Positions 16,016 to 47,900 of a DNA stretch of 64,000 bases are shown here, one piece after another (within the stretch, counting starts at the first letter, position 1; each line of letters opens with the position of its first letter). The notes under the pieces were generated by a model. That model saw only the letters and a list, made by a program, of their open reading frames with translations, ran no database searches and was not told the DNA's origin. This DNA comes from Escherichia phage vB_EcoM-fFiEco06, in the sequence record NC_054914.1, one strand, 5' to 3'. A program made the translations under genes and the position numbers.

Positions 16016-16068
16016 CCTCATGTTATGTCAGTAAGACTACTATAACACAACACGAGGGACTTGTAAAC
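16016..16068 (-). promoter_or_regulatory. Early promoter/stem-loop cassette, copy A (identical to 31830..31882)
   Basis: Minus strand: GTTTAC (-35), 17-bp spacer, TTATAGT (-10), then GAGG Shine-Dalgarno; 12-bp imperfect inverted repeat brackets the -10. Confidence 0.6.
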
Positions 16069-27748: not shown

Positions 27749-27981
27749 AGTACGCCATACACCCTTTGTGCTTCAACTAATCCATCAAAATCCAATTTGA
27801 GATGTGTTATTTGGTCACCATCACCTGGATTCACAATTACTAATACTGAACGAGGAGTTTCGGTAATAACACGAACCGATGTTTCGGGAAATCGTTCAGA
27901 AACCTTATTTACTAATTCCTGCGCAAATAGTTTAACTTTTTCTTGGAATTCTTTAACAGTAATTGGTTTTTCACTTAGCAT
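27745..27981 (-). CDS. Hypothetical protein
   Basis: 78-aa ORF. Confidence 0.5.
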   Translation of the reverse strand: MLSEKPITVKEFQEKVKLFAQELVNKVSERFPETSVRVITETPRSVLVIVNPGDGDQITHLKLDFDGLVEAQRVYGVL

Positions 27982-28502
27982 GTTGATCCCAGCTCCTTAC
28001 TTTCAACGTTTTTAACTAATTTGACAGAAACTAATTCAGCATCTTGGGTAATCATTACCGGGCCTTCTTCATGCTCTTCAAGATATTCTAGAGCTTTCTT
28101 TTTAGCTTCTTCCTTCGTATCAGTTTGAGCATAGATATAGAACATACAACCAGTAATACCTACTACTTTCCACTTAATTTCTTTATCAGTTTTAATTTCA
28201 AATTTACTTACAGAATCATCTTTTTGAACTTCTTCGAAAAAAGAATATTCTAACATATAAGCAATTGAAAATAACGGGCTAACTTTATAGGATTCACCCA
28301 TTACATCAACAGCTTTATACCAACAATCATCAATTTCGCGTTTAATGCTAATAACATTTTTCGCAGGATCTATTTTTACTTTAAATGAATTTTCCCCAAT
28401 AAACTGGGCAATTCGTTTATTAGCCCCGCAAGTTTCATTAAAAATATCTTTATACCCAGTTTTAAAGCGATAAACCTTATCTTCTTCAAACCATTCGCTC
28501 AT
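27975..28502 (-). CDS. Hypothetical protein
   Basis: 175-aa ORF. Confidence 0.55.
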   Translation of the reverse strand: MSEWFEEDKVYRFKTGYKDIFNETCGANKRIAQFIGENSFKVKIDPAKNVISIKREIDDCWYKAVDVMGESYKVSPLFSIAYMLEYSFFEEVQKDDSVSKFEIKTDKEIKWKVVGITGCMFYIYAQTDTKEEAKKKALEYLEEHEEGPVMITQDAELVSVKLVKNVESKELGSTC

Positions 28503-29042: not shown

Positions 29043-30450
<1,408 letters not shown>

Positions 30451-30454
<4 letters not shown>

Positions 30455-30681: not shown

Positions 30682-30977
30682 TTACATTTATCCTCTTTTA
30701 ACTCTTGACGATAATAACATATCATAGTTTTCTGGTCGTGTACATATCGTTTTACATCATTAAGCCAAATACGAAATTCCTGAGAATCTTCAAATGGCAT
30801 ACCGACCCAAGCTTTACCATCAATAACTTTAACTTGCCAAGATAATTTAGCTTCGTCATATGACTTTATTTGTACAGGCCAATTAGGATGAACTGTTTCT
30901 TTCTTTACTTCTAGAGGCTTTGTCGAACAACCAACTAGAAGACCAATAGATAATATTACTGCTGATAGTTTAATCAT
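30678..30977 (-). CDS. Outer-membrane spanin-like lipoprotein (o-spanin candidate)
   Basis: Signal peptide with lipobox LVGC; about 99 aa; overlaps the preceding i-spanin-like gene. Confidence 0.65.
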   Translation of the reverse strand: MIKLSAVILSIGLLVGCSTKPLEVKKETVHPNWPVQIKSYDEAKLSWQVKVIDGKAWVGMPFEDSQEFRIWLNDVKRYVHDQKTMICYYRQELKEDKCK

Positions 30978-31327
30978 TTAGAAAGGTCCTGGATGTCTTC
31001 TGCGAACTTGTTGAAGGAGTTGTTGATTTGTTTTTCAACCAATCCTGGCTTACGAGCCACCACATCCGCCTTCTTTGCATCTTTGCGCAGTTTTTCATTT
31101 TCACGCTCAATAGCAGCAATCGCCTCACGATTTTTATTATTCATCGCATCAATATAATTATACTGAATTCGCAAATTATTTAATGCTAAGGCGTTTTCAT
31201 TGGCCGTTTTTGTAATTTCTACAACAGACGTTTCTAATCTTTCAATTTTATTTTTTAAAATTAAAGAAGTTCCGCCTAATGCAATTACAATTAATAGCAA
31301 ACCTGCTGTCGTATTACTTAATTGCAT
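30974..31327 (-). CDS. Inner-membrane spanin-like protein (i-spanin candidate)
   Basis: N-terminal transmembrane helix followed by a coiled-coil-like region; 117 aa. Confidence 0.65.
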   Translation of the reverse strand: MQLSNTTAGLLLIVIALGGTSLILKNKIERLETSVVEITKTANENALALNNLRIQYNYIDAMNNKNREAIAAIERENEKLRKDAKKADVVARKPGLVEKQINNSFNKFAEDIQDLSK

Positions 31328-31824
31328 AAAGTTTTAATAACCTCTATAATATCGTCTTGAGAAAGACCGTTAATTAAAATATGATGTTCAGCCGGAGATT
31401 TAGAAATTTTAAAGCACGCCGCAACATCTTCTGCCATATCCGATGCGCTACGATTTGGATTACTAATTCCAAGACGATGTTTTCCCGTTAAAGGATTAAC
31501 GATGATATAGCATTTACAGTTGTTAATATGAACATTAGGTTGAGTCTGATTAATGAACACATCGCAATCATATTTCGCAAGCTGATTTTCTAAAAAGACT
31601 TTCATCTCCTCAACCGCATCAGGAAGCATATCACGGGCTTGCTCAAGACGACGATTTCGATATTCTTTAATGGTCGTTTTCCGCTTGACTTGCTTAGCTA
31701 AATCTTTCTTAAGATCGGTGATATATCCAACTCGACGATTTCCTTTAAATACAGAAATCCCATCTGTAGTATCACCGTATGCTTCAACGACCATTTCAGT
31801 AGTAATAAGCTGCAAATCCATCAT
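31318..31824 (-). CDS. alc: Alc, host transcription terminator for cytosine-containing DNA
   Basis: 168 aa; position between the spanin pair and rnlA as in T4. Confidence 0.8.
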   Translation of the reverse strand: MMDLQLITTEMVVEAYGDTTDGISVFKGNRRVGYITDLKKDLAKQVKRKTTIKEYRNRRLEQARDMLPDAVEEMKVFLENQLAKYDCDVFINQTQPNVHINNCKCYIIVNPLTGKHRLGISNPNRSASDMAEDVAACFKISKSPAEHHILINGLSQDDIIEVIKTLCN

Positions 31825-31829
31825 AAAGT

Positions 31830-31882
31830 CCTCATGTTATGTCAGTAAGACTACTATAACACAACACGAGGGACTTGTAAAC
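31830..31882 (-). promoter_or_regulatory. Early promoter/stem-loop cassette, copy B (identical to 16016..16068)
   Basis: 53-bp perfect copy; supplies -35, -10 and SD for alc. Confidence 0.6.
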
Positions 31883-31885
31883 AGC

Positions 31886-33473
<1,588 letters not shown>

Positions 33474-33481
33474 AATAAAAT

Positions 33482-33495
33482 GGGCCTTGCGGCCC
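33482..33495 (-). terminator. Hairpin (gggcc-ttgc-ggccc) after nrdB
   Basis: GC stem directly downstream of the nrdB stop on the minus strand, followed by a T-rich tract. Confidence 0.5.
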
Positions 33496-33500
33496 ACTCC

Positions 33501-34679
33501 TTAAAAGTATTTTTTAAAACTCATCATAACTTTATCATCAACATCATTATCAATCTGTGCAACAAGGTAAGATGACAATTCTACTTCTTGTGGCGCAGAT
33601 TGAACATTATCAGAATTAAGATATTCACGAATCCAAGGATATGGATGTTTAACCGGAGCATCGGTAATTGGGCATGGAAGACCACACTGCTTCATACGAG
33701 ATACAGTTAAGTAATCAATAAAGCTCCACATGCTATTTGTATTTAATCCAGGAACATCTCCATCTTTAAATAAATGAACTGCCCAATCTTTTTCTTGGCG
33801 GTTAACTTCCATGAAAATATCAACTGCTTCTTGTTCACACTCTTGAGCAATTTTAACCCATTGATCGCCATCAGTACCAGATTGAAGTTGACGAATAATA
33901 TATTGGGTGCCTTTAAGGTGAAGCTGTTCATCGCGTGCAATGAACTTCATAATCTTGGCATTACCTTCCATGATTTCCATGTTCTTATGGAAGTTAAAGG
34001 TACATGCAAAAGATACATAAAAACGAATAGCTTCCAATGCGTTGATTACATGCAAACAGAGGTAAAGAGATTTCATTAGCTCACGCTTCCAATATGTCTC
34101 ATGCTCAATAGCATCTTCAATAACGTCTTCGTCTGCATTAATTTCTTTTTGGTATTCGATATCAGCTTTAGCGTTTTCCCAATAACGAGTTTTAATCAGA
34201 ACATCATCATAATAACGTCCAATGGATTCAGCACGTTTCATAATAGCTTCATCTAATACAATCTCATCAAATACCTTCGATGGATCAGTATAAAGATTTC
34301 GCATGATATGAGTATATGAACGACTGTGAATAGTTTCACTAAAAGTCCATGTAGCAACCCATGTATCAAGACTTGGGTCTGAAATTAATGACATAAGTAC
34401 AGCAGACGGCGCACGACCCTGAATGCTATCTAAAAGTGATTGATACTTCAGGTTGTTAGTAAAAATATTTTGCTGGTACTGAGGAAGCTTATTAAACTGT
34501 GCAGCATCCATCATCAAGTTTACTTCTTCAGGACGCCAGAAAAATGATAATTGCTTTTCGGTTAAATCTTCAAAAACTTTATGACGTTGAATATCATAAC
34601 GCGCAATACCAAGACCTGAACCAAAAAACATAGGTTCTTTTAAAACATCAACTGGATTTGTATTAAAAACTGTGCTCAT
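33501..34679 (-). CDS. nrdB: Ribonucleotide reductase small subunit NrdB (continuous, no intron)
   Basis: 392-aa uninterrupted ORF; di-iron ligand-type E/H motifs. Confidence 0.92.
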   Translation of the reverse strand: MSTVFNTNPVDVLKEPMFFGSGLGIARYDIQRHKVFEDLTEKQLSFFWRPEEVNLMMDAAQFNKLPQYQQNIFTNNLKYQSLLDSIQGRAPSAVLMSLISDPSLDTWVATWTFSETIHSRSYTHIMRNLYTDPSKVFDEIVLDEAIMKRAESIGRYYDDVLIKTRYWENAKADIEYQKEINADEDVIEDAIEHETYWKRELMKSLYLCLHVINALEAIRFYVSFACTFNFHKNMEIMEGNAKIMKFIARDEQLHLKGTQYIIRQLQSGTDGDQWVKIAQECEQEAVDIFMEVNRQEKDWAVHLFKDGDVPGLNTNSMWSFIDYLTVSRMKQCGLPCPITDAPVKHPYPWIREYLNSDNVQSAPQEVELSSYLVAQIDNDVDDKVMMSFKKYF

Positions 34680-34730
34680 AAATTTTCCGCTTAGTTAATA
34701 GTTGGTGACTCGTCCGTGAGTCAAATTATA

Positions 34731-36995
34731 TCATAATTTACAGGATGAACAATCTTCAGCTTTTGGAGTTTCTATTTCATAATCATCAGTACCAGAACCA
34801 TCGCGGGTATTATGATAATAGAAATTTTTTCCGCCAAAATACCAAAAATACAAAAGGTCATCAATCATTATTGACATTGGAACCTTGCCTTTAGGGAAGA
34901 TTTGGGGGTCATAGTATGTATTCGCCGAAGCTGATTGACAAACCCATTTCAGCATAATAGCTACCTGCGTAAGATAAGGTTTATTACCTTTCTTAGCTAA
35001 TTTCCATGTATAGTCGTAAAGGTCTATGTTATGCTCAATATTGGGCACGACTTGATTAAAGGAACCCTCTTTTGATTCTTTAACAGAGACTGGTCCACGT
35101 GGAGGCTCGATACCGTTTGTACTGTTAGAAACTTGGGAAGATGACTCACATGGCATAAGTGCTGATAATGTGCTATTACGGATGCCAAAGAGCTTAAGGT
35201 CTTCCCGCAGCGCCGACCAGTCACAAACGTATTTTGGAGCTGCGATTTGGTCAATCTTTTTATTGTACCAGTCGATAGGTAATTCGCCTCGAGACCAACG
35301 AGTGTCTGAATAATATTCGCAAGGTCCTTTTTCTTTGGCGAGCTTAATGGATGCTTTAATGAGTCCATACTGTAATCTCTCAAATAGTTCATGTGTTAAA
35401 TCATTAGCATCTTCATAAGAAGCAAAGTTACTTGCCAGCCAAGCTGCATAGTTGGTAACACCTACACCGAGGTTACGACGCTTTTTAGCTTTTTCTGCTT
35501 CAGGAACTGGATATCCTTGGTAATCCAACAGATTATCAAGAGCACGAACTTGAACTTCTGCCAATTCATTAATTTTATCTTGGTCTTGCCAGTCAAAATT
35601 ATCTAGTACGAATGCAGAGAGAGTACACAATCCAATTTCAGCATCAGGACTATTCACATCATTTGTTGGAATAGCAATTTCACAGCACAAGTTACTCTGA
35701 CGAATAGGTGCCTTTTCACGAATAAACGGAGTATAGTTATTCGTATTATCAATGAACTGTACATAAATTCTTGCTGTTCCTGAGCGTTCAGTCATGAGCA
35801 ATTCAAATAGTTCACGGGCTTTAATACGCTTTTTACGAATATTAGGGTCTTTTTCTGCTGCTTCGTATAATTCACGGAAACGGTCTTGGTCTTTAAAATA
35901 AGAATAATAAAGCTCTCCGCCCATTTCATGGGGACTGAACAAAGTAATGTAATCGTTCTTTCCAAAACGTTCCATCATCAAATCATTCAGTTGAACACCA
36001 TAATCCATATGACGAATGCGGTTTTCTTCTACGCCTTTGTTATTTTTCAAAACAAGAAGATTTTCAACTTCCAAATGCCAAATAGGATAATAAGCAGTAG
36101 CAGCGCCGCCACGAATTCCACCCTGTGAGCATGATTTAACAGCAGTCTGAAAATGTTTCCAAAAAGGAATAACACCAGTATGGCGTACTTCACCCATGCC
36201 AATCTTAGAACCTTCAGCACGAATCATACCAACGTTAATACCAATTCCAGCGCGTTTAGAGATATATTCAACAATTGAAGCAGAAGCCTTATTGATAGAC
36301 TTCAGTGAATCGCCTGCCTCAATAACAACGCATGAACTAAACTGCCGAGTTGGAGTACGGCAACCAGCCATAATAGGAGTTGGTAATGAAATCTGTCGAG
36401 TAGATACCGCTTCATAAAAACGGATAACATGTTTTAATCTATCAACAGGTTCATCTTGATGCAAGGCCATTCCAATAGTCATAAATGCAAACTGTGGAGT
36501 TTCATAAATTTGACCAGTGGTTTTATCTTTAACTAGATATTTTTCTTTTAATTGCATCGCCCCGGAATAAGTAAATTCCATATCCCGTTCGTGCTTAATT
36601 TTTGATTCTAAAAATGTAATTTCTTCTGCTGAATATTTTGACAACAGTTCAGGGTCGTATTTACCTTCATTTACACAGTAAGAAATATGGTCAATAAATG
36701 AACGCGGTTCATACTGCCCATAAACATGCTTACGAAGAGCGAACATTAGACAACGTGCAGCTACATATTGATAATCAGGCTCTTCGACCGAAATAGAATT
36801 CGCAGCGGCCTTAATGACAATAGTCTGAATATCATCAGTTGTCATTCCATCACGGAGATAAGATTTAATATTTTCATATAATTCATAAGGATCTACTGAT
36901 GTTCCCTCAGATGCCCAAGATAAAACTTTAATAATTTTTTGCGGGTCAAAGCTCTGAGAAACACCACTACTTTTGATAACATTAATTAATTGCAT
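34731..36995 (-). CDS. nrdA: Ribonucleotide reductase large subunit NrdA
   Basis: 754 aa; ATP-cone N-terminus; catalytic Cys motifs. Confidence 0.95.
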   Translation of the reverse strand: MQLINVIKSSGVSQSFDPQKIIKVLSWASEGTSVDPYELYENIKSYLRDGMTTDDIQTIVIKAAANSISVEEPDYQYVAARCLMFALRKHVYGQYEPRSFIDHISYCVNEGKYDPELLSKYSAEEITFLESKIKHERDMEFTYSGAMQLKEKYLVKDKTTGQIYETPQFAFMTIGMALHQDEPVDRLKHVIRFYEAVSTRQISLPTPIMAGCRTPTRQFSSCVVIEAGDSLKSINKASASIVEYISKRAGIGINVGMIRAEGSKIGMGEVRHTGVIPFWKHFQTAVKSCSQGGIRGGAATAYYPIWHLEVENLLVLKNNKGVEENRIRHMDYGVQLNDLMMERFGKNDYITLFSPHEMGGELYYSYFKDQDRFRELYEAAEKDPNIRKKRIKARELFELLMTERSGTARIYVQFIDNTNNYTPFIREKAPIRQSNLCCEIAIPTNDVNSPDAEIGLCTLSAFVLDNFDWQDQDKINELAEVQVRALDNLLDYQGYPVPEAEKAKKRRNLGVGVTNYAAWLASNFASYEDANDLTHELFERLQYGLIKASIKLAKEKGPCEYYSDTRWSRGELPIDWYNKKIDQIAAPKYVCDWSALREDLKLFGIRNSTLSALMPCESSSQVSNSTNGIEPPRGPVSVKESKEGSFNQVVPNIEHNIDLYDYTWKLAKKGNKPYLTQVAIMLKWVCQSASANTYYDPQIFPKGKVPMSIMIDDLLYFWYFGGKNFYYHNTRDGSGTDDYEIETPKAEDCSSCKL

Positions 36996-37312
36996 AAGTC
37001 CTCAACTTGAAAATCGTCTTTAAACAGTCGGTTAACTATATGAGCTATTATATCACCATGACACGGCTTTGGTTTACATGTGCATCCTAGCCTCATTCCA
37101 CGTAAAGGCTCTAAATGTGCTTTAGTTATTTCTCCGGATTTAATTCGACGTATAAAATCTTTTTTGAATAATTCAATGGCAGCCTCCCGGCTGCCAGCAT
37201 CTTTACCGACGTAATTTCCCCAAAATGTACCACGGTGAATATTCACATCAAAGTCGGATTTGTATTTATTCACTACCCGACATAGACGGCCCGCGCGGTG
37301 ATAATTCGGCAT
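36986..37312 (-). CDS. Hypothetical protein with Cys/His cluster (nrdA.1-like)
   Basis: 108 aa; [13 protein letters not shown] motif. Confidence 0.55.
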
Positions 37313-37529
37313 ATTGTTTTTCCGTTAAAACAGTAATATCGTAGTAACAGTCAGAAGAAGTTTTAACTGTGGAAATTTTATTATCAAAATACTCACGAGT
37401 CATTTTATGAGTATAATATTTTTTGCCATAAATGATAATAGGCTGATTTGGTCCTGGAACTTCTAACTCACTTGGGTTAGGAAGTGTAAAAAGAACTACA
37501 CCAGAAGTATCTTTAAATCGTAAAATCAT
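37266..37529 (-). CDS. Hypothetical protein (nrdA.2-like)
   Basis: 87-aa ORF. Confidence 0.5.
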
Positions 37530-37552
37530 AAATCCTCACAATTAAATTAAAA

Positions 37553-37864
37553 TTACACCGCCATTTTTCCTTTCAAGACGCCGTGGGACTGATAATCTTT
37601 GAGAACGAAATCTTTAGGCCTGAGTTTAAGAATGTATTCCAATTGTTCTTTAGTAGAAAGATAGCGGAATTTATAAGGCAATCCGCCTATTACCAGTTCA
37701 CAAAGCTCTTTAGGTTCACGACGCAAAATTTCTTTACATTGTTCTACGTGATTCATATAGATATGAGTATTACCACCGGAAAATATCAAATCTCCCGGAA
37801 TAAGATTACACATCTTAGCTACAATATGAACTAACGTAGCATATGATGCAATATTAAATGGAAG
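37553..37864 (-). CDS. td: Thymidylate synthase, exon 2
   Basis: Encodes LPFNIASYATLVH… to the stop; 3' splice site after …CATAATG. Confidence 0.9.
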   Translation of the reverse strand, partial: LPFNIASYATLVHIVAKMCNLIPGDLIFSGGNTHIYMNHVEQCKEILRREPKELCELVIGGLPYKFRYLSTKEQLEYILKLRPKDFVLKDYQSHGVLKGKMAV

Positions 37865-38880
37865 CATTATGTTCAGATAAGGTCGTTAATCTTACCCCGG
37901 AATTATATCCAGCTGCATGTCACCATGCAGATCAGACTATATCTCCAACTTGTTAAAGCAAGTTGTCTATCGTTTCGAGTCACTTGACCCTACTCCCCAA
38001 AGGGATAGTCGTTAGGCATTTATGTAGAACCAATTCCATTTATCAGATTTTACACGATAAGTAACTAATCCAGACGAAATTTTAAAATGTCTAGCTGCAT
38101 CTGCTGCACAATCAAAAATAACCCCATCACATGAAATCTTTTTAATATTACTAGGCTTTTTACCTTTCATCTTTTCTGATATTTTAGATTTAGTTATGTC
38201 TGAATGCTTATGATTAAAGAATGAATTATTTTCACCTGAACGATTTCTGCATTTACTACAAGTATAAGCAGAAGTTTGTATGCGAACACCGCACTTACAA
38301 AACTTATGGGTTTCTGGATTCAAACGCCCGTTTTTACTTCCGGGTTTACTGTAAAGAGCTTTCCGACCATCAGGTCCAAGTTTAAGCATCTTAGCTTTAA
38401 CAGTTTCAGAACGTTTCTTAATAATTTCTTCTTTTAATGGATGCGTAGAACATGTATCACCAAACGTTGCATCAGCAATATTGTATCCATTAATTTTAGA
38501 ATTAAGCTCTTTAATCCAAAAATTTTCTCGTTCAATAATCAAATCTTTCTCATATGGAATTTCTTCCAAAATAGAACATTCAAACACATTACCATGTTTG
38601 TTAAAAGACCTCTGAAGCTTTATAGAAGAATGGCATCCTTTTTCTAAATCTTTAAAATGCCTCTTCCATCTCTTTTCAAAATCTTTAGCACTTCCTACAT
38701 ATACTTTATTGTTTAAAGTATTTTTAATCTGATAAATTCCGCTTTTCATAAATACCTCTTTAAATATAGAAGTATTTATTAAAGGGCAGTCCTACAATTT
38801 AGCACGGGATTGTCTACTAGAGAGGTTCCCCGTTTAGATAGATTACAAGTATAAGTCACCTTATACTCAGGCCTCAATTA
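37865..38880 (-). mobile_element. td group I self-splicing intron (1016 nt) carrying I-TevI
   Basis: 5' end reads TAATTGAGGCCTGAGTATAAGGTGACTTATACTTG… as I recall for the T4 td intron; in-frame stop terminates exon 1. Confidence 0.9.
38012..38749 (-). CDS. I-TevI: Homing endonuclease I-TevI (GIY-YIG)
   Basis: 245 aa; N-terminal GIYQIKN…VYVGSAKDFEKR GIY-YIG motif; C-terminal Zn-finger/HTH region. Confidence 0.92.
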   Translation of the reverse strand: MKSGIYQIKNTLNNKVYVGSAKDFEKRWKRHFKDLEKGCHSSIKLQRSFNKHGNVFECSILEEIPYEKDLIIERENFWIKELNSKINGYNIADATFGDTCSTHPLKEEIIKKRSETVKAKMLKLGPDGRKALYSKPGSKNGRLNPETHKFCKCGVRIQTSAYTCSKCRNRSGENNSFFNHKHSDITKSKISEKMKGKKPSNIKKISCDGVIFDCAADAARHFKISSGLVTYRVKSDKWNWFYINA

Positions 38881-39428
38881 ACCCAAGAAAACATCTACTG
38901 ATCGTTGATACCACTGCAAATCCAAATAGCCATTACGCACATTAAACTGATAGAACATATGACAAGGCGGTAATGCCATCTGCTTGAGTTCAGCTGGATT
39001 CCATGCTGAAACAATTTGACGCCTATCATTTGGCAATTTTTTAATACGATCAATAACTTCTATAATTTGGTCTACACCACCAAAATCACGCCACTGTTTT
39101 CCATAAATTGGACCAAGTTCACCGCTATGGTATCCTAAATCTTTTGCTTGATTTTCGTAATTTTCATCCCAAACTGTTTTGCCTTGGATTAACGAATCAT
39201 GTTGAATTAATCGCAAATCATTGACATTTGTGCTTCCCGATAAAAACCAAAGCAGCTCAGCAATGCAAGCTTTCCAGGCGAGCTTCTTAGTTGTTACTGC
39301 AGGAAAACCTTTAGTTAAATCCCAGCGTAATTTAGTACCGAACAAAGCAATTGTTCCTGTGCCTGTTCGGTCATCGGTTTCGTAGCCATTTTCCAGGATA
39401 TCTTTAATTAAAAATTGGTATTGTTTCA

Positions 39429-39429
<1 letters not shown>
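38881..39429 (-). CDS. td: Thymidylate synthase, exon 1
   Basis: MKQYQ… to …RSVDVFLG; the active-site Cys (…PPCHMFYQF…) lies in this exon. Confidence 0.9.
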
Positions 39430-40458
<1,029 letters not shown>

Positions 40459-40468
40459 ATTATTTTCC

Positions 40469-40711
40469 TTAAACAGACTTTTTCACAATTTTCCAATCAG
40501 CTTTAAACTGCTCGACGTCAGAATGGTAAATCCAGAATCCTGCGCTTTCACCGTCTTCATAAAGCGGACACCCATCACATTCATCTTCCCATCCCATGCC
40601 ACGTAAAAGGTGTTCAGCTTTTTCAACAAGTTCAGAATCTTTACCGATGATATTAAAATACCATTTACCTCTAACTTCTGAATCTTTGATGCTCTGGCGT
40701 TGTAATCTCAT
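40469..40711 (-). CDS. Hypothetical protein
   Basis: 80-aa ORF. Confidence 0.55.
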   Translation of the reverse strand: MRLQRQSIKDSEVRGKWYFNIIGKDSELVEKAEHLLRGMGWEDECDGCPLYEDGESAGFWIYHSDVEQFKADWKIVKKSV

Positions 40712-40849
40712 TTTATTCTCCTTAGCAAGCTTTAATCAAAAGATATAAACAGACCAACATAACTGCTGCCATAATATAAGGTGCGAACATTTTCTTTTCT
40801 CCATTAGTTTTGATAGGGTAATAGTATCACACTACTACCCTTCTGTAAA

Positions 40850-41215
40850 CTACTTTTTGAAAGTTTTTCGCAAAAGTTCAATGATTTCATCTACATTGTT
40901 TTCGTCAACAATGCAGTGAATTTTTGTTACGCCAGAAACTTTGTCTTTGACTTCATCTTCTTCAGAAGTCGGTTCTTTATACTCACGAAAACAATGAAAT
41001 TCGTCTTCACAAACGTTAAAGTAAAAATGCTTTCCATTTGCGCATTCAATGTGTTTTATTACTCTAAATCCATCAACAAAGAAAGCTTCTTTAACTTCAA
41101 ACCATCCGCCATTTTCTTGAATAATTTTAACTATTGCTGAATTAGAACGTGGGCGATAATTAATAAATGTATCAATAAGTCTTGGAACAAGTTCATACTT
41201 TTTACCGATATACAT
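40850..41215 (-). CDS. Hypothetical protein
   Basis: 121-aa ORF. Confidence 0.55.
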   Translation of the reverse strand: MYIGKKYELVPRLIDTFINYRPRSNSAIVKIIQENGGWFEVKEAFFVDGFRVIKHIECANGKHFYFNVCEDEFHCFREYKEPTSEEDEVKDKVSGVTKIHCIVDENNVDEIIELLRKTFKK

Positions 41216-41259
41216 TATGTTTTCCTCATTTTAACGGGGCTGTAATAGCCCCTTGATAA

Positions 41260-41487
41260 TTATTGTTCAATCAATCCCATGTAAAATTCTGCGTCTTCAG
41301 AATCCATACCATCACAATATTCATTAGCCATAAAGCGGGTGAGGTCTTCAAGAGGACCTTCAATAACGATTTGAATACTCCAAAACTTAGAATCTTGCAC
41401 GCTTGTGATACTAAGTTCAGGATAACGATTACGAATAATTTCTTCGATATATTCAAAATCAACGATGTCAATATCAACTTTAGCCAT
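41260..41487 (-). CDS. Hypothetical acidic protein (start at MAKVDIDI…)
   Basis: Internal ATG preceded by an AAAGAGGAAAA Shine-Dalgarno. Confidence 0.5.
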
Positions 41488-41520
41488 ATTATTTTCCTCT
41501 TTAATCATCAGCAGTATTGC

Positions 41521-41580
41521 CGATAGTTGTATAGTACCATGGAAGGACAAGGATGTAAACCGTTTTGTGAAAAAATTTTT
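41521..41580 (-). promoter_or_regulatory. T4-type early promoter with A/T-rich UP element
   Basis: Minus strand: AAAATTTTTTCACAAAACG GTTTACA …17 bp… TACTATAC. Confidence 0.55.
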
Positions 41581-41590
41581 GAAATAAAAA

Positions 41591-41609
41591 GGGGACCTCT
41601 AGGGTCCCC
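41591..41609 (-). terminator. Terminator hairpin after gene 32 (ggggacc-ctaga-ggtcccc + T-run)
   Basis: 7-bp GC stem immediately downstream of the gp32 stop, followed by TTTTTATTT on the minus strand. Confidence 0.6.
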
Positions 41610-41631
41610 AATTAATTAGTAATATAATCTA

Positions 41632-42540
41632 TTAAAGGTCATTCAAAAGGTCATCTAGGTCCGTGTCATCAGCACTAGATGAACTGCCAGAGCTTGAGCT
41701 CATAAAATCATCTTCAGTTTTTGTATTGAAGTCATCAACATTGAATGCATCCAAATCATCAGCAACTTTATCAGCTTTCTTAGCAGCAGTTGCAGCAGCA
41801 CCGCCCATCACAGCAGTTCCCATAACTTGACCGAATTTAGTGCTCAGTTCTTCAAACGATTTGAATTTATCTTTAGAAGTCATTTCAGAAAGGTCAACCA
41901 TTTGTTCGAACAGTTCTTTCTGGAAAGATTCATCGTCAATGTTTGGAATCGCAGATTGATTCAGGAATTTAGATTCGTCGTAGTTACTAAATCCAGAAAC
42001 CTGTTTAACTTTCAGTACAAAGTTAGCACCTTCCCACGGACAAGTTACATCAACCGGAGTTTCACCCATTTCAACATCAACCGCAATCATCGCGTTGATT
42101 TTATCCCAGATTTTCTTACCGAAACGATATTTAAATACTTTACCTTCATTTTCTGGAGCAGCTGGGTCTTTTACAACAAGAATATTAGCCCAGTAAGAAG
42201 TTTTACGTTTAACAAGACTGTACTCTTTATTGTCAGTGTTGTACAGATCATTTTTACTGATGTACTGACATACTGGACAAGAATCGTAATCACCGTGGGT
42301 AGATGAACAGTTTTCAATATACCATTTACCATTTTTCTTGAAACCGTGATTTACAAGAATTGCGAACGGTGCTTGTTCATCATTTTTAGACGGAAGAAAA
42401 CGAATTACTGCTTGACCGTTACCCGCATTGTCGAGTTTCAGTTTCCACTCGCCTTTATCTTCAGAAGAAAAACCACCTTTATTTCCAGCCAGTTTAGCCA
42501 TTTGTGCAGCGAGTTCAGCAGTAGATTTACGTTTAAACAT
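41632..42540 (-). CDS. 32: Single-stranded DNA-binding protein gp32
   Basis: 302 aa; acidic Ser/Asp-rich C-terminal tail. Confidence 0.95.
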
Positions 42541-42642
42541 TTTTATTTCCTTTTTAATTTAATTAACAGTTGGTGCTATGACGATGTATGACCTCATAGC
42601 TGGTCAGTGAGATAATTATAATCTATTTATAATAAGCAATTA
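42541..42642 (-). promoter_or_regulatory. Gene 32 leader with candidate middle (MotA-box) and late promoters
   Basis: Minus strand ATTGCTTA box, TATAAATA, then TATAAT; A/U-rich leader before the ATG. Confidence 0.5.
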
Positions 42643-43293
42643 ATACTTGCAAGATTTCACAGTTTCAATGAAAACATTTTTAGCTTTCTGTGAATCAATA
42701 TTTAAAATTTTTCTATAAGCCTTTAACTTTATAGAATAATTATTCCAGACTAAATTATCAGTCTGTTCATCATGTTTATCAATTATATTTAAAAACGAAT
42801 CAAGCAAGATAAACGTTTCAAACGAAATTATATTCGATTGAAGTAGTTTAAAAATATAACTTGATTGAACTTTTGGATTATACTCAAAGATTTCTTTAAA
42901 AGCAGAAACTTCAACTTTCTTACTAAAATAATAAATGTTGCGAATATCTTCTTCAAACTTAAATTTAATTTGCTTTAAGCGTCCGATATATTCACGATAA
43001 AACACAAGTGCATCAGCGTCAGAGATGTCGCCAATCCAAGCATCCTGGTTAGCAACAAGATTGCTTATAAAGATTAAAGCAAGTTCCTTTAATTTATATT
43101 TTTCTGATAACTTCTGGAAAAAATACTTATCCCTTCGCTTTTGATAAGCGGCATCAGACACCCGCATGCACCAATTATACTTAATAACATCATACTTTCC
43201 ATTCATATGTTGTTTTATCATTAAGTATAATTTATAAACTGATTTACCATCAATGTATCTTTCACCACCAGCAGGCATGCGGAGTTTAATCAT
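42640..43293 (-). CDS. 59: Helicase loader gp59
   Basis: 217 aa; synteny. Confidence 0.9.
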   Translation of the reverse strand: MIKLRMPAGGERYIDGKSVYKLYLMIKQHMNGKYDVIKYNWCMRVSDAAYQKRRDKYFFQKLSEKYKLKELALIFISNLVANQDAWIGDISDADALVFYREYIGRLKQIKFKFEEDIRNIYYFSKKVEVSAFKEIFEYNPKVQSSYIFKLLQSNIISFETFILLDSFLNIIDKHDEQTDNLVWNNYSIKLKAYRKILNIDSQKAKNVFIETVKSCKY

Positions 43294-43628
43294 AGTAGAA
43301 AATCTAATGTATTAGTTTTTTCACAACGAACAACAGAAGGACGTAAAAGATTTTCGTCAATGGCTTCTGACTGAATTTTTTCAATTATACCCGAAGGAAT
43401 AAATTTAGCAAATTGAGTTTCAGGAATAGAGTTTTCTTCTAAGAATGCTGTTGTAGCTTCAAGATAACTCATTCCAAACTCTTCTACCATTTTTTCAATA
43501 ATAAATCCATTTTCTTGACGATCAAGAAGCTTTGCTATTTCATCCTTTTCTTTCTTGATTGAAAGTTCTTTTTCTGAAAGACCGGTCTCATCGACCGGAC
43601 GAATGTCATTTAGAGAAAACTGTGTCAT
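43290..43628 (-). CDS. 33: Late transcription co-activator gp33
   Basis: 112 aa from MTQFSLND…; the track ORF carries a 3-residue upstream extension. Confidence 0.88.
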   Translation of the reverse strand: MTQFSLNDIRPVDETGLSEKELSIKKEKDEIAKLLDRQENGFIIEKMVEEFGMSYLEATTAFLEENSIPETQFAKFIPSGIIEKIQSEAIDENLLRPSVVRCEKTNTLDFLL

Positions 43629-43875
43629 AAAGTTCAACTACCTCTTCAGTTTCAGCTTCAAACACATCACGGTTATCTTTATGATACAAAGCTAATAGAC
43701 GATTAAACATCTTACCATCAACGCCAAGTTCATCTTTGGCACGAATTCGAATATCTTTAATCAGTTCATTATAACCGGAAATTTTCAGTTTATGATCAGA
43801 TGCTTCTTTAATAAATTTAGCCAAGTCTTCGCCATGGATAGCTTCATCAAATTCAACCATTTCTTTTTTAGCCAT
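43606..43875 (-). CDS. dsbA: Double-stranded DNA-binding protein DsbA
   Basis: 89 aa; synteny. Confidence 0.85.
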   Translation of the reverse strand: MAKKEMVEFDEAIHGEDLAKFIKEASDHKLKISGYNELIKDIRIRAKDELGVDGKMFNRLLALYHKDNRDVFEAETEEVVELYDTVFSK

Positions 43876-43883
43876 TATTCACC

Positions 43884-44801
43884 TCAAAATTCATTAATGC
43901 TATTAGTTAATTTAGAAAGACCCGCTTTTACAAAATATGAATAAATTTTGCCACGCGGTGGTAATTTATATGAATTATAGTAATTCACAATGTTTGAAGC
44001 AATATTATCAGGAATATAATCAAAATCAATTAGAACTAAATTTTCTTTATAACGATTATACTCAGATTCTGAGAGAAGCACCTTAGCTTGCTCACGGTCA
44101 TTAGCAATAGCTTCAACGATTGAAGTTTTCATTGAAGGAGTTCGTTCACCTTCAACTCTGGTAAACCAAAAGTCAGATCGTACTTTAACTGAAGCAACGT
44201 TATCCTTTTTGTCGCCTTTAAGGATTTTAGTCATACAGTCAATTTCAGCAGAACCGCTTTTAATTTTAACCCATTTCTTATGCATCGGTGACCATTGCTT
44301 AACATTTGGATATTTGTGAAGCTGTGTAAAGTCACCATCCGACGAAATGATTAAAATCTTGTGTCCTTCTAAAGAGAACTTTTTAACAAGAACAGCAATA
44401 TGGTCATCTGCTTCATACTTATCAATATCCATAACAATGTATGGCATATAAGCTTTCAATTCATCTATAACTTTATGGCTGGATTCAAAATAACCTTCCC
44501 AGTCCCAAGTAGATTCTTCTCGTGCTTTTCCACGGTTTTTCTTATAATAATAAGCAAAATCACGACGCCAGTATCCAGATTTCGCGTTATCAATACACAG
44601 CACAATTTTAGTGTATCCAAGCGTTTTTGCTTTTTTGACATTAAACTTAATTGAGTTCAATATCAAATGACGAACCATTGATAAATTAATTTTTTCTTTA
44701 TCTGGGAAGTTTACCAGAGCAGTTGAAAGAGCAATTTGACTAAAGTCAATAAAGCAAATTCCTTCTTTGTAATCTTCATCCAGCATCATTTCTAAATCCA
44801 T
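43884..44801 (-). CDS. rnh: RNase H / 5'-3' exonuclease
   Basis: 305 aa from MDLEMML…; FEN-type acidic residues. Confidence 0.9.
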   Translation of the reverse strand: MDLEMMLDEDYKEGICFIDFSQIALSTALVNFPDKEKINLSMVRHLILNSIKFNVKKAKTLGYTKIVLCIDNAKSGYWRRDFAYYYKKNRGKAREESTWDWEGYFESSHKVIDELKAYMPYIVMDIDKYEADDHIAVLVKKFSLEGHKILIISSDGDFTQLHKYPNVKQWSPMHKKWVKIKSGSAEIDCMTKILKGDKKDNVASVKVRSDFWFTRVEGERTPSMKTSIVEAIANDREQAKVLLSESEYNRYKENLVLIDFDYIPDNIASNIVNYYNSYKLPPRGKIYSYFVKAGLSKLTNSINEF

Positions 44802-44863
44802 ATGAACCTCGTTCAATTAGTGAGATTTCTATTATATACTATCTAAATCTTAAAGTAAACAGG

Positions 44864-44871
44864 TATAAATA
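44864..44871 (+). promoter_or_regulatory. Late promoter TATAAATA upstream of gene 34
   Basis: Exact match about 35 nt upstream of the ATG. Confidence 0.6.
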
Positions 44872-44905
44872 CTTATTATTGAAAACACAATAGGAGCCCG
44901 GGAGA

Positions 44906-47900
44906 ATGGCCGAGATTAAAAGAAAGTTCAGAGCAGAAGATGGTCTGGACGCAGGTGGCGATAAAATAATCAACGTAGCTTTAGCTGATCGTACCGTAGG
45001 AACTGACGGTGTTAACGTTGATTACTTAATTCAAGAAAACACAGTTCAGCAATATGACCCAACTCGTGGATATTTAAAAGATTTTGTAATCATTTATAAT
45101 AATCGTTTTTGGGCAGCAACGGATAATATTCCAAAACCTGCTGGAAATTTTAATAGAATTCGTTGGAAAGCATTACGTACTGATGCCGTATATACAACCG
45201 TATCATCTGGACCATATCAATTAAAATCCGGAGAAGCAATTTCAGTAGATACATCAGTTGGCAATGACATTGAGTTTACTTTACCACCTTCTCCGCTTGA
45301 TGGAGAAACCGTAATAATTCAAGATATCGGTGGAAAACCTGGCATAAATCAGGTTAAAATAAATTCTTCAAATCAGAGTATTGTCAATTTTAGAGGTGAA
45401 CAGGTACGTTCAGTTTTAATGACTCATCCAAAGTCACAGATGGTATTCATTTTTAATAATCGTTTGTGGCAAATGTATATTGCTGATTATAGCAGAGAAG
45501 CTGCGATTGTTACTCCATCGACTGCATATCAAGCACAATCTAATGATTTTATCGTACGTAGATTTACTTCTGCTGCACCAATTAATGTTAAACTTCCGAG
45601 ATTTGCTAATCATGGCGATATTATTAATTTCGTTGATTTAGATAAACTGAATCCACTTTATCATACAATTGTTACTACATACGATGAAACGACTTCAGTA
45701 CAAGAAGTTGGAACTCATTCCATTGAAGGCCGTACATCGATTGACGGTTTCTTGATGTTTGACGATAATGAGAAATTGTGGAGATTGTTTGACGGGGATA
45801 GTAAAGCACGTTTACGCATTATAACAACTAATTCAAATATTCGTCCAAATGAAGAAGTCATGGTATTTGGCGCGAATAATGGAACAACCCAAACAATTGA
45901 ACTTCAGCTTCCGACTGATATTTCTGTTGGTGATACTGTTAAAATTTCCATGAATTACATGAGAAAAGGACAAACAGTTAAAATCAAAGCTGCTGGTGAA
46001 GATAAAATTGCTTCTTCAGTTCAATTGCTGCAATTCCCAAAACGTTCAGAATATCCGCCTGAAGCTGAATGGGTAACAGTTCAAGAATTAGTTTTTAACG
46101 GTGAAACTAATTATGTACCAGTTTTGCAACTTGCTTATATAGAAGATTCTGATGGAAAATACTGGGTTGTACAGCAAAACGTTCCAACAGTTGAAAGAGT
46201 CGATTCTTTAAATAATTCTACTAGAGCAAGATTAGGCGTAATTGCTTTAGCTACACAAGCTCAAGCAAATGCTGATTTAGAAAATTCTCCGCAAAAAGAA
46301 TTGGCAATTACTCCAGAAACGTTAGCTAATCGTACTGCTACAGAAACTCGCAGAGGTATTGCAAGAATAGCAACTACTGCTCAAGTGAATCAGAACACCA
46401 CATTCTCTTTTGCAGATGACCTTATCATCACTCCTAAAAAGCTGAATGAAAGAACTGCTACAGAAACTCGCAGAGGTGTCGCTGAAATTGCTACGCAGCA
46501 GGAAACTAATACAGGTACTGATGATACTACAATCATTACTCCTAAAAAGCTTCAAGCTCGCCAAGGTTCTGAATCATTATCTGGTATTGTAACTTTTGTA
46601 TCTACCGCAGGAGCTACTCCAGCTTCTAGTCGTGAATTAAATGGTACGAATGTTTATAATAAAAACACTAATAATTTAGTTGTTTCACCTAAAGCTTTGG
46701 ATCAGTATAAAGCTACTCCAACGCAACAAGGCGCAGTAATTTTAGCAGTTGAAAGTGAAGTAATTGCTGGACAAAGCCAAGAAGGATGGGCAAATGCGGT
46801 TGTAACGCCAGAAACGTTACATAAAAAGACATCAACTGATGGAAGAATTGGTTTAATTGAAATTGCTACGCAAAGTGAAGTTAATACAGGAACTGACTAT
46901 ACTCGTGCAGTCACTCCTAAAACTTTAAATGACCGTAGAGCAACTGAAAGTTTAAGTGGTATAGCTGAAATTGCTACGCAAGTTGAATTCGACGCAGGCG
47001 TCGACGATACTCGTATCTCTACACCATTAAAAATTAAAACCAGATTTAATAGTACTGATCGTACTTCTGTTGTTGCTCTATCTGGATTAGTTGAATCAGG
47101 AACTCTCTGGGACCATTATACCCTTAATATTCTTGAAGCAAATGAGACACAGCGTGGTACACTTCGTGTAGCTACACAAGTTGAAGCTGCTGCAGGAACA
47201 TTGGATAATGTTCTAATAACTCCTAAAAAGCTTTTAGGTACTAAATCTACTGAAGCGCAGGAAGGCGTTATTAAAGTTGCAACTCGGTCTGAAACTGTAG
47301 CTGGAACGTCAGCAAATACTGCTGTATCTCCAAAAAATTTAAAATGGATTGTGCAGAGTGAACCTACTTGGGCAGCGACTACTGCGATAAGAGGTTTTGT
47401 TAAAACTTCGTCTGGTTCAATTACATTCGTTGGTAATGATACAGCTGGTTCAACACAGCCATTAGAATCATATGAGAAAAATGGTTATGCAGTATCACCA
47501 TATGAATTAAATCGCGTATTAGCAAATTATTTGCCGTTAAAAGCAAAAGCCGTAGATAGTAATTTATTAGATGGTCTAGATTCGCTCCAGTTCATTCGTA
47601 GGGACATTGCACAAACAGTTAATGGTTCACTAACCTTAACCCAACAAACGAATCTGAGTGCCCCTCTTGTATCATCTAGTACTGCTACATTCGGTGGATC
47701 AGTTTCAGCAAATAGTACATTAACTATTTCTAATACTGGAACGGCAACTCGTCTGATTTTTGAGAAAGGACCTCAAACTGGAACAAACCCGGCTCAAACG
47801 ATGACAGTCAGAGTGTGGGGAAATCAATTTAGCGGGGAATCAGACACAACACGTTCTACCGTATTTGAAGTTAGTGATGAAACGTCTAGTCATTTTTATT

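Follow-up and report, generated by a model that had tools for sequence, protein, structure and literature searches.

The td intron of bacteriophage T4 is the subject of the work of Chu and Belfort, and the patchy occurrence of introns from one T-even phage to another has been recognized since 1987. The T4 intron, which is mobile and established as self-splicing, is the founding example of its kind in bacteria and their phages (PMC2988022). Under the mechanism reviewed there, the td intron would act as a self-splicing group I (IA2-type) ribozyme, with the 5' splice site set by P1, in which exon UUGGGU would face intron GCCUGA and the junction itself would be a U•G wobble. Attack on the 5' splice site would come from exogenous guanosine bound in P7, the terminal G (37865 in our coordinates) would fix the 3' splice site, and exon ligation would yield the mRNA for a 286-aa thymidylate synthase. 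During mixed infection, the intron-encoded endonuclease I-TevI would bind a td allele that lacks the intron, around the insertion site, and cut it 23 and 25 nt upstream of that site, at a CNNNG motif, and double-strand-break repair would then transfer the intron, together with neighboring exon sequence, to the recipient. If regulation follows that of T4, I-TevI would be confined to the late phase of infection by a late promoter within the intron, a hairpin sequestering the ribosome binding site, and autorepression at an operator.

Here, we describe the corresponding locus in Escherichia phage vB_EcoM-fFiEco06 (NC_054914.1), analyzed within a window of 64,000 nt, by which we mean the whole stretch of DNA studied. 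The locus almost certainly carries the classical mobile td intron of the T-even phages, in a genome where nrdB either escaped invasion or lost its intron. The anatomy of the region (Table 1), its near-identity to T4, its intact reading frames, and the signals of a ribozyme fold are directly visible in the window, and we infer splicing, homing, and regulation in fFiEco06 from the T4 experiments. The combination of a td intron with an intronless nrdB is real, already known, common among phages, and ordinary.

Table 1. Features of the td and nrdB loci in the window.
Feature	Coordinates	Strand	Description
td exon 1	38881..39429	minus	549 nt, codons 1-183, ends ...VDVFLG; 94.9% identity with T4 exon 1
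td group I intron (subgroup IA2 type)	37865..38880	minus	1016 nt; starts UAAUUGAGGCCUGAG; terminal G of ...CAUAAUG at end
Ribozyme 5' part	38778..38880	minus	intron nt 1-103: guide/P1 3' strand, P2, P3 5' strand, P4, P5, P6 5' strand
GGACTGCCCTTTAATAAATAC	38772..38792	minus	late-promoter-like AATAAATA and putative counterpart of the published I-TevI operator
I-TevI ORF	38012..38749	minus	245 aa, intron nt 132-869, in P6 loop; preceded by RBS AAGAGG; 3' end overlaps P6 3' strand
Ribozyme 3' part	37865..38016	minus	intron nt 865-1016: P6 3' strand, P7, P7.1, P7.2, P3 3' strand, P8, J8/7, P7 3' strand, P9, P9.1, terminal G
td exon 2	37553..37864	minus	312 nt including stop codon, starts LPFNIASYA...; 88.1% identity with T4 exon 2
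nrdA-nrdB spacer	34680..34730	minus	51 nt; T4 has mobE and nrdB.1 there
nrdB	33501..34679	minus	uninterrupted, 392 aa; Pfam Ribonuc_red_sm 6e-37

The td intron and its host gene

The initial annotation had placed a 1016-nt element within td at …DVFLG|LPFN…, and this proved right to the base. Reading along the minus strand, exon 1 ends ...GTAGATGTTTTCTTGGGT (…VDVFLG) at 38881, the intron begins TAATTGAGGCCTGAG at 38880 and finishes CTGAACATAATG at 37865, and exon 2 opens with CTTCCATTTAAT (LPFN…) at 37864. The start codon of td is the minus-strand ATG at 39429, beyond the range quoted in that annotation, which ended at the intron start. When joined in silico, the exons form an in-frame ORF of 861 nt encoding an intact, full-length thymidylate synthase of 286 aa. 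This product matches Pfam Thymidylat_synt at 1e-94, covering profile positions 1-266 of 266, and aligns over residues 1-286 with T4 Td (PDB 1TIS), with 272 of the 286 residues identical.

Reading the insert as a td group I intron of the T4 type that encodes I-TevI is supported by a direct comparison, in which the two agree in 1013 of 1017 aligned columns (99.6%) and the four differences alter a single I-TevI residue. The T4 intron (NC_000866 143782..144798, 1017 nt) lies in the same gene and at the same insertion site (…GGGT|CT…), and the two share their ends, the ribozyme core, and, within the P6 loop, a GIY-YIG endonuclease of 245 aa. Relative to T4, the window is missing one T at intron nt 93 and has a silent A263G, a G559T that produces I-TevI W143L, and a C949A in J7/9. 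The likeness is not due to chance, since td introns 100% identical to this one occur in 14 GenBank phage records and introns of at least 99% identity in 191. Counted as exact 45-mer megablast matches in a collection of phage records, the allele with one T fewer at nt 93 is present in 151 records and A at nt 949 in 157. Both are the majority alleles among these records, and it is T4 that is atypical at the two positions. A pattern scan of IMG/VR for the alleles upstream of I-TevI matched two contigs, a number insufficient for frequencies.

The exons of T4 diverge from those of the window, being only 95% (exon 1) and 88% (exon 2) identical, and the mismatches in exon 2 begin as early as +3, +6, and +18. 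Over +1..+27, exon 2 of the window is instead the T2 sequence.

I-TevI and its upstream region

The proposal that the intron encodes a 245-aa GIY-YIG homing endonuclease is borne out by three Pfam domains and by matches to solved I-TevI structures (PDB 1MK0, 1LN0, and 1I3J; 1e-61 to 1e-75). The domains are GIY-YIG (PF01541, residues 3-90, 2e-18), I-TevI_ZnF (PF22635, residues 149-179, 1e-20), and I-TevI_DNA-bd (PF20987, residues 192-242, 3e-32), which gives the I-TevI layout of a catalytic domain at the N terminus, a zinc finger in the linker, and a minor-groove/HTH DNA-binding domain at the C terminus. The protein shares 244 of its 245 residues with T4 I-TevI, W143L being the sole difference. 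Small extra ORFs near the locus were considered as hidden homing endonucleases and rejected, as they had no Pfam matches.

The I-TevI operator and late promoter are described in PMC2988022, and by comparison with that description the segment at 38772..38792 may function as the operator. The window is one T shorter than T4 here (ACT[T]GCCC). We rejected this missing T (nt 93) as a regulatory novelty, as it belongs to the allele of 151 records and, in a hand alignment, barely alters the similarity between the operator and the homing site.

W143L is a minority allele, and a literature search for I-TevI W143 found no paper mentioning it. If this substitution, or the one-base change upstream, had inactivated or deregulated I-TevI, the intron would still splice but would be non-mobile and entering the decay phase of the homing-endonuclease cycle, an account that we regard as very unlikely. 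The confinement of W143L to 16 phage records fits such a loss, but these are independent isolates from Escherichia and Yersinia hosts, and the I-TevI ORF is full length with its three Pfam domains far over their cutoffs. Residue 143 itself falls within the linker of I-TevI (residues 93-169; PMC12774661), outside the catalytic domain, on the N-terminal side of the zinc-finger match (149-179). The missing T falls within the segment ascribed to the operator and late promoter, but the allele without it is the majority one. Decay does occur in the lineage, as ORF-deleted td introns are found on the same exon background in Shinka (MZ502379), six other phages, and FL18. These introns have the insertion site and ribozyme core of the window, with exon flanks identical to its own over a 102-nt junction probe. 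The Shinka intron has nt ~104-799 (I-TevI) deleted and retains 320 nt, and FL18 has a 445-nt version with a 55-aa I-TevI remnant.

For the classical mobile intron that we favor, the T2 td gene offers a view of a possible recipient site. T2 td is intronless and has the same exon 2 sequence beside the insertion site as the window, while its exon 1 reads TTT CTT GGT immediately upstream of that site, where the window reads TTC TTG GGT. Between -40 and +25, the T2 site differs from the joined exons of the window at only three bases (-7, -6, and -4). The CNNNG homing-site motif is CAACG at -27..-23 from the insertion site in both T2 td and exon 1 of the window (38903..38907). By analogy with T4, I-TevI would be an active endonuclease in fFiEco06 and the intron would be capable of homing. 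As a long shot, W143L, situated in the 'ruler' linker just before the zinc finger, may alter the choice of cleavage distance or tip the balance of cutting at the homing site against repression at the operator, perhaps as an adaptation to T2-like exon flanks.

The ribozyme core

A check of 37865..38880 against the Rfam group I intron model, proposed in the initial annotation, gave a divided result. At the gathering threshold, an Rfam scan of the whole window returned zero matches and no group I intron, and in permissive mode RF00028 gave E = 3.7e-9 at 42.5 bits, short of the cutoff of 50, the 5' half being wrongly placed within the ORF. When searched alone, both halves of the ribozyme match RF00028, the 5' half over model positions 1-129 (19.7 bits, E = 0.0023) and the 3' half over positions 129-253 (32.7 bits, E = 4e-7). 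The ORF-less 320-nt intron of Shinka scores 66.9 bits, over the cutoff of 50. It differs from the window by one mismatch in the 5' 103 nt and two in the 3' 217 nt; both of the latter fall in the ORF remnant, and the stretch at 37865..38016 is identical. The shortfall on the window arises because the 738-nt ORF in the P6 loop splits the ribozyme; the Rfam miss is a technical effect of an ORF within a ribozyme and no refutation. Group I introns containing ORFs are missed by the standard Rfam scan.

The helices themselves are well preserved, with full complementarity in P1, P2, P3, P4, P5, P7, P7.1, P7.2, P8, P9, and P9.1. All core base pairs are present in P3 (6/6), P4 (5/5), P5 (3/3), P7 (6/6), and P8 (7/7), and the P3/P7 pseudoknot is intact. 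The P7.1 and P7.2 extras of the IA2 type are found, as are P2, P9, and P9.1. In P1, the final six bases of exon 1, UUGGGU, pair 6/6 with the guide sequence at intron nt 9-14 (GCCUGA), the last exon U standing opposite G9 as a U•G wobble, and the final base of the intron is G, as expected at a group I 3' end. When an ORF-deleted construct is folded to minimum energy, every one of these helices except P1 and P7 is recovered and P6 is added with one bulge; P7 is the pseudoknot partner of P3, which minimum-energy folding cannot represent. Given its 99.6% identity to the T4 td intron, the intron is predicted to self-splice with guanosine as cofactor.

There is next to no chance that the insert is a free-standing endonuclease cassette and td is left in two separately translated or dead pieces: the empty default Rfam scan, the two td CDSs annotated in many GenBank records, and an in-frame ATG directly preceding exon 2 would suit that reading, but both ribozyme halves match RF00028 and the ORF-less homologue exceeds its cutoff, the core helices are all intact, the intron is nearly identical to the founding self-splicing example (PMC2988022), and the split lies inside the conserved DVFLGLPFN motif, with the two parts fusing in frame to make a single complete Pfam domain. 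In many automatic phage annotations, td still appears as two separate 'thymidylate synthase' genes.

nrdB and the distribution of td introns

As first annotated, nrdB is a continuous ORF of 392 codons without an intron. An alignment with T4 shows a clean gap in nrdB that coincides exactly with the 598-nt T4 intron. The suggested scan for the nrdB insertion site located it, empty, at 34004|34003, after nt 676 and inside codon Cys226, where the junction reads ...TTTTGCAT|GTACCTTT.... Both mobE and nrdB.1 are absent from the window, again as clean gaps in the T4 alignment. With no intron between ...TTTTGC(G/A)T and GTACCTTT and no mobE, the window does not belong among the carriers of the T4-type nrdB intron (I-TevIII) and its mobE trans-homing module, which in T4 sits between nrdA and nrdB. 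The nrdB gene of T2 (NC_054931.1) is likewise continuous, with 392 aa and 94% identity to that of the window, and the T2 nrdA-nrdB spacer is nearly the same, short and without mobE. The nrdA-nrdB segment is of the T2 type, its nrdB never having been invaded or having lost its intron.

The same pattern is seen in phages of the T6 and LZ2 type, in which the intron-encoded GIY-YIG is present and the HNH nrdB intron endonuclease absent, a likeness drawn solely from Table 5 of PMC2993671, where T6 and LZ2 have the intron-encoded GIY-YIG only and no nrdB intron. The intron complement described here is that of the window, and the nrdD locus lies outside it. Escherichia phage vB_EcoM-fHoEco02 (MG781191.1, Tequatrovirus ecombl75) is 100% identical over 30865..45880 of the window and 99.9% identical elsewhere; the approximately 33 mismatches and 6 small indels in 64 kb all fall outside the td-nrdB region. 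That record gives td as a joined CDS with I-TevI and nrdB as continuous. The exact sequence and the right annotation are already in GenBank, and the locus has little discovery value. The window is also collinear with at least 30 further phage records.

The initial annotation had read such patterns of presence and absence as marks of homing history and as lineage markers. The first of these holds, in the form of horizontal homing and decay, while the second claims too much. Identity to T4 is 99.6% for the intron but only 94.9% and 88.1% for the exons, and intron-plus, ORF-less, and intronless td alleles are all found on near-identical exon backgrounds, so the pattern reflects homing and decay rather than descent. 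Because it moves horizontally, the td intron is a weak lineage marker. At the td site, public genomes show the homing-endonuclease life cycle in all three of its stages, namely the full intron, the ORF-less intron, and the empty site, and their occurrence on almost the same exon background makes them usable for studies of intron turnover.

Anatomy of the td intron

Every gene in the td–nrdB region of this T4-like phage (Tequatrovirus) lies on the minus strand. An upstream ORF ending …VDVFLG closes at a TAA formed by the first three bases of TAATTGAGGCCTGAG, from 38880 downward, and a downstream ORF, M-LPFNIASYA, opens at an ATG formed by the last three bases of …CTGAACATAATG, which ends at 37865. 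With these two ORF ends at the intron borders, td therefore consists of exon 1, intron and exon 2. Joined, the exons give an 861-nt in-frame ORF and a 286-aa protein that spans the whole Pfam Thymidylat_synt profile (1e-94) and aligns with residues 1-286 of T4 thymidylate synthase (PDB 1TIS) with 14 substitutions, bearing out the proposed split of td by a 1016-nt intron. The intron ORF carries the Pfam GIY-YIG, I-TevI zinc-finger and I-TevI DNA-binding domains and matches the solved I-TevI structures 1MK0, 1LN0 and 1I3J, as expected of the 245-aa GIY-YIG homing endonuclease described in the initial annotation. That finding is real and was correctly interpreted; the sole correction concerns its range, 33501-38880, within which the elements are right but beyond whose upper coordinate td continues.

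Features of the td–nrdB region, the phage Shinka td intron, and ORFs discussed in the text
Feature	Coordinates	Strand	Size and remarks
nrdB	33501..34679	-	single ORF, 392 aa
nrdA–nrdB spacer	34680..34730		51 nt
td exon 2	37553..37864	-	312 nt
td intron	37865..38880	-	1016 nt
I-TevI ORF	38012..38749	-	245 aa, within td intron
td exon 1	38881..39429	-	549 nt, ATG at 39429
ORF between cd.2 and cd.3	27975..28502	-	175 aa
ORF between pseT and pseT.1	30134..30454	-	106 aa
ORF between frd and td	39429..39635	-	68 aa, stop overlaps td start as TAATG
ORF between frd.1 and frd	40213..40458	-	81 aa
Shinka mini-intron	6052-6371 of locus L008 (MZ502379)		320 nt

The element and its arrangement are already known, and an identical public record carries the annotation. 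Over a 7.3-kb query running from denA to frd, the window matches Escherichia phage vB_EcoM-fHoEco02 (MG781191.1) at 100% identity and, as one collinear piece, more than 30 further Escherichia, Yersinia and Shigella phage records at 97% or better. Compared directly, the window and MG781191.1 have 0 mismatches over 30865..45880 and ~99.9% identity over the remainder of the 64 kb; the record lists nrdB, nrdA, nrdA.1, nrdA.2, td (a two-piece joined CDS), I-TevI, a small hypothetical ORF and frd here.

The identification of the intron as T4 type was also upheld, with differences from T4 (NC_000866) at only four of 1017 aligned columns: one T fewer at nt 93 (ACT[T]GCCC), a silent A-to-G change in I-TevI, G559T, which produces I-TevI W143L, and C949A, in the P7–P9 joining segment. 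Alleles were counted by exact-word searches of a phage collection with 45-mers centred on each variant, which find no seed in records of the alternative allele. The form lacking one T (window 38788) was found in 151 records and A949 (window 37932) in 157; at both positions the T4 laboratory strain has the minority allele (extra T; C for A), and the window's 1016-nt form is the common wild one. The W143L allele occurs in 16 records only. Residue 143 falls within the linker of I-TevI (residues 93-169; PMC12774661), slightly upstream of where the zinc finger matches (149-179), and a literature search for I-TevI W143 found no publication mentioning the residue. W143L is the single loose end of the td finding, and an effect on I-TevI is a candidate only.

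Group I ribozyme and predicted mobility

Scanned against Rfam by default, at the gathering threshold, the complete window gave no matches, but a permissive search placed the group I intron model RF00028 at 37913..38143 (42.5 bits against a curated cutoff of 50; E = 3.7e-9), with the 3' half correctly aligned and the 5' half pushed into the ORF end. Taken alone, the 5' intron part (38775..38890) matched model positions 1-129 (19.7 bits, E = 0.0023) and the 3' part (37913..38025) positions 129-253 (32.7 bits, E = 4e-7), and the natural, ORF-less mini-intron of phage Shinka cleared the cutoff at 66.9 bits (E = 2.1e-15). Since both halves and the mini-intron match, we attribute the shortfall to the 738-nt ORF that occupies the P6 loop, and the empty default scan, which at face value would count against the initial annotation, should not be read as the lack of a group I fold. 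The helices likewise support a group I intron: P1 forms 6/6 pairs with a U•G wobble at the splice site, P2, P3, P4, P5, P7, P7.1, P7.2, P8, P9 and P9.1 are fully complementary, and the last intron base is G. The minimum-energy fold of an ORF-deleted construct recovered P2-P6, P7.1, P7.2, P8, P9 and P9.1; P1 and P7 were missing from it. P7 pseudoknots with P3, and minimum-energy folding cannot represent pseudoknots.

While the anatomy is observed here, we infer splicing, homing and regulation from experiments on T4 (PMC2988022). By this analogy, the intron would self-splice with a guanosine cofactor, and I-TevI would bind an intronless td at a 38-bp homing site with the insertion point in its middle, cutting 23 and 25 nt upstream of that point at a CNNNG motif, after which double-strand-break repair would copy the intron and flanking exon into the recipient. 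CAACG is present at -27..-23 in exon 1 (counted from the insertion site). I-TevI synthesis may be confined to late infection by a late promoter inside the intron and a hairpin that sequesters the RBS, with autorepression at an operator overlapping the promoter as an additional control. The window has a late-promoter-like element, AATAAATA, at intron nt 101 and an RBS, AAGAGG, upstream of the I-TevI ATG.

Homing history and intron decay

Identity to T4 is 99.6% for the intron but falls to 94.9% in exon 1 and to 88.1% in exon 2, where differences begin at +3. Relative to intronless T2 (NC_054931.1), exon 2 is identical over +1..+27 and exon 1 differs at -7, -6 and -4 (window 38885..38887), reading TTC TTG GGT rather than TTT CTT GGT, which encode the same amino acids. 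In P1, the intron-associated TTC TTG GGT is perfectly complementary to the intron's guide sequence, and because the differing exon 1 positions include P1-pairing bases, they seem to move together with the intron. This identity pattern is what would be expected of horizontal spread with short co-conversion tracts, and it matches the "inconsistent distribution" and "recent transfer of old introns" of the literature (Pedersen-Lane and Belfort 1987, Quirk et al. 1989, Sandegren and Sjöberg 2004, as cited in PMC2988022 and PMC2993671). Table 5 of PMC2993671, which is silent on which intron is involved, gives T6 and LZ2 one intron-encoded GIY-YIG enzyme and no HNH intron enzyme, a pattern that fits the window. 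In the phage collection, 195 records have the td intron at ≥80% coverage and 118 the T4-type nrdB intron.

A junction-spanning 102-nt probe revealed seven phages (Shinka, C2-3, 101112UKE3-1, PYps55T, MLP2, UPWr_E2 and 235Ecol030PP) whose exon flanks equal the window's across the probe and lie only ~320 nt apart. All seven have a 320-nt version of the window's intron from which I-TevI has been cleanly removed (nt ~104-799, between TTTAAT and TTTAAAAT). Compared with the window, the Shinka copy has one mismatch in its first 103 nt (5' end) and two in its last 217 nt (3' end), both of the latter within the ORF remnant. The Mosigvirus FL18 has an intermediate, 445-nt td intron with a 55-aa endonuclease remnant. 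Together with intronless T2, the full, ORF-less and remnant introns put every stage of the homing-endonuclease cycle at a single site. Since one and the same exon background is found with a full intron, an ORF-less one or none, presence or absence reflects exposure and decay more than descent; of the initial annotation's two readings, homing history stands on the exon and intron identities, but as a lineage marker the intron is weak. The records of the seven phages annotate just two separate "thymidylate synthase" CDSs.

Intronless nrdB and neighboring genes

The claim that nrdB is intronless is confirmed by its continuous ORF and by scanning of the T4 intron site, where the 598-nt T4 intron aligns to a clean gap. 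The empty site reads …TTTTGCAT|GTACCTTT… at 34004|34003, after gene nt 676, and differs from the T4 exons solely at -2 over ~30 nt on each side. Between nrdA and nrdB, T4 carries mobE and nrdB.1; the window lacks both, and the short spacer here is almost identical to that of T2. In T4, MobE introduces a nick into the 5' part of T2 nrdB and takes the defunct I-TevIII intron with it (PMC2790892); in crosses of that kind, the window's nrdB would presumably act as recipient, not as donor. The T4 free-standing endonuclease gene segG is absent from the gene 32/gene 59 gap (near 42540..42640), and I-TevI is the sole homing endonuclease listed by MG781191.1 in the region matching this 64 kb. This agrees with the published picture of T4 as a phage unusually well stocked with endonuclease genes of this kind.

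Four ORFs, none with a Pfam match, were also observed. In T4, frd directly overlaps td, unlike in the window, where the 68-aa ORF intervenes. The 81-aa ORF is also present in T2 and is unannotated in T4, and for the 175-aa and 106-aa ORFs the T4 annotation of the region lists no counterpart. MG781191.1 additionally annotates a second alt-family (ADP-ribosyltransferase-like) gene of 685 aa adjoining alt (window ~16068..18125, minus strand), noted there as T4 Alt.-1 plus another T4 segment in one long ORF.
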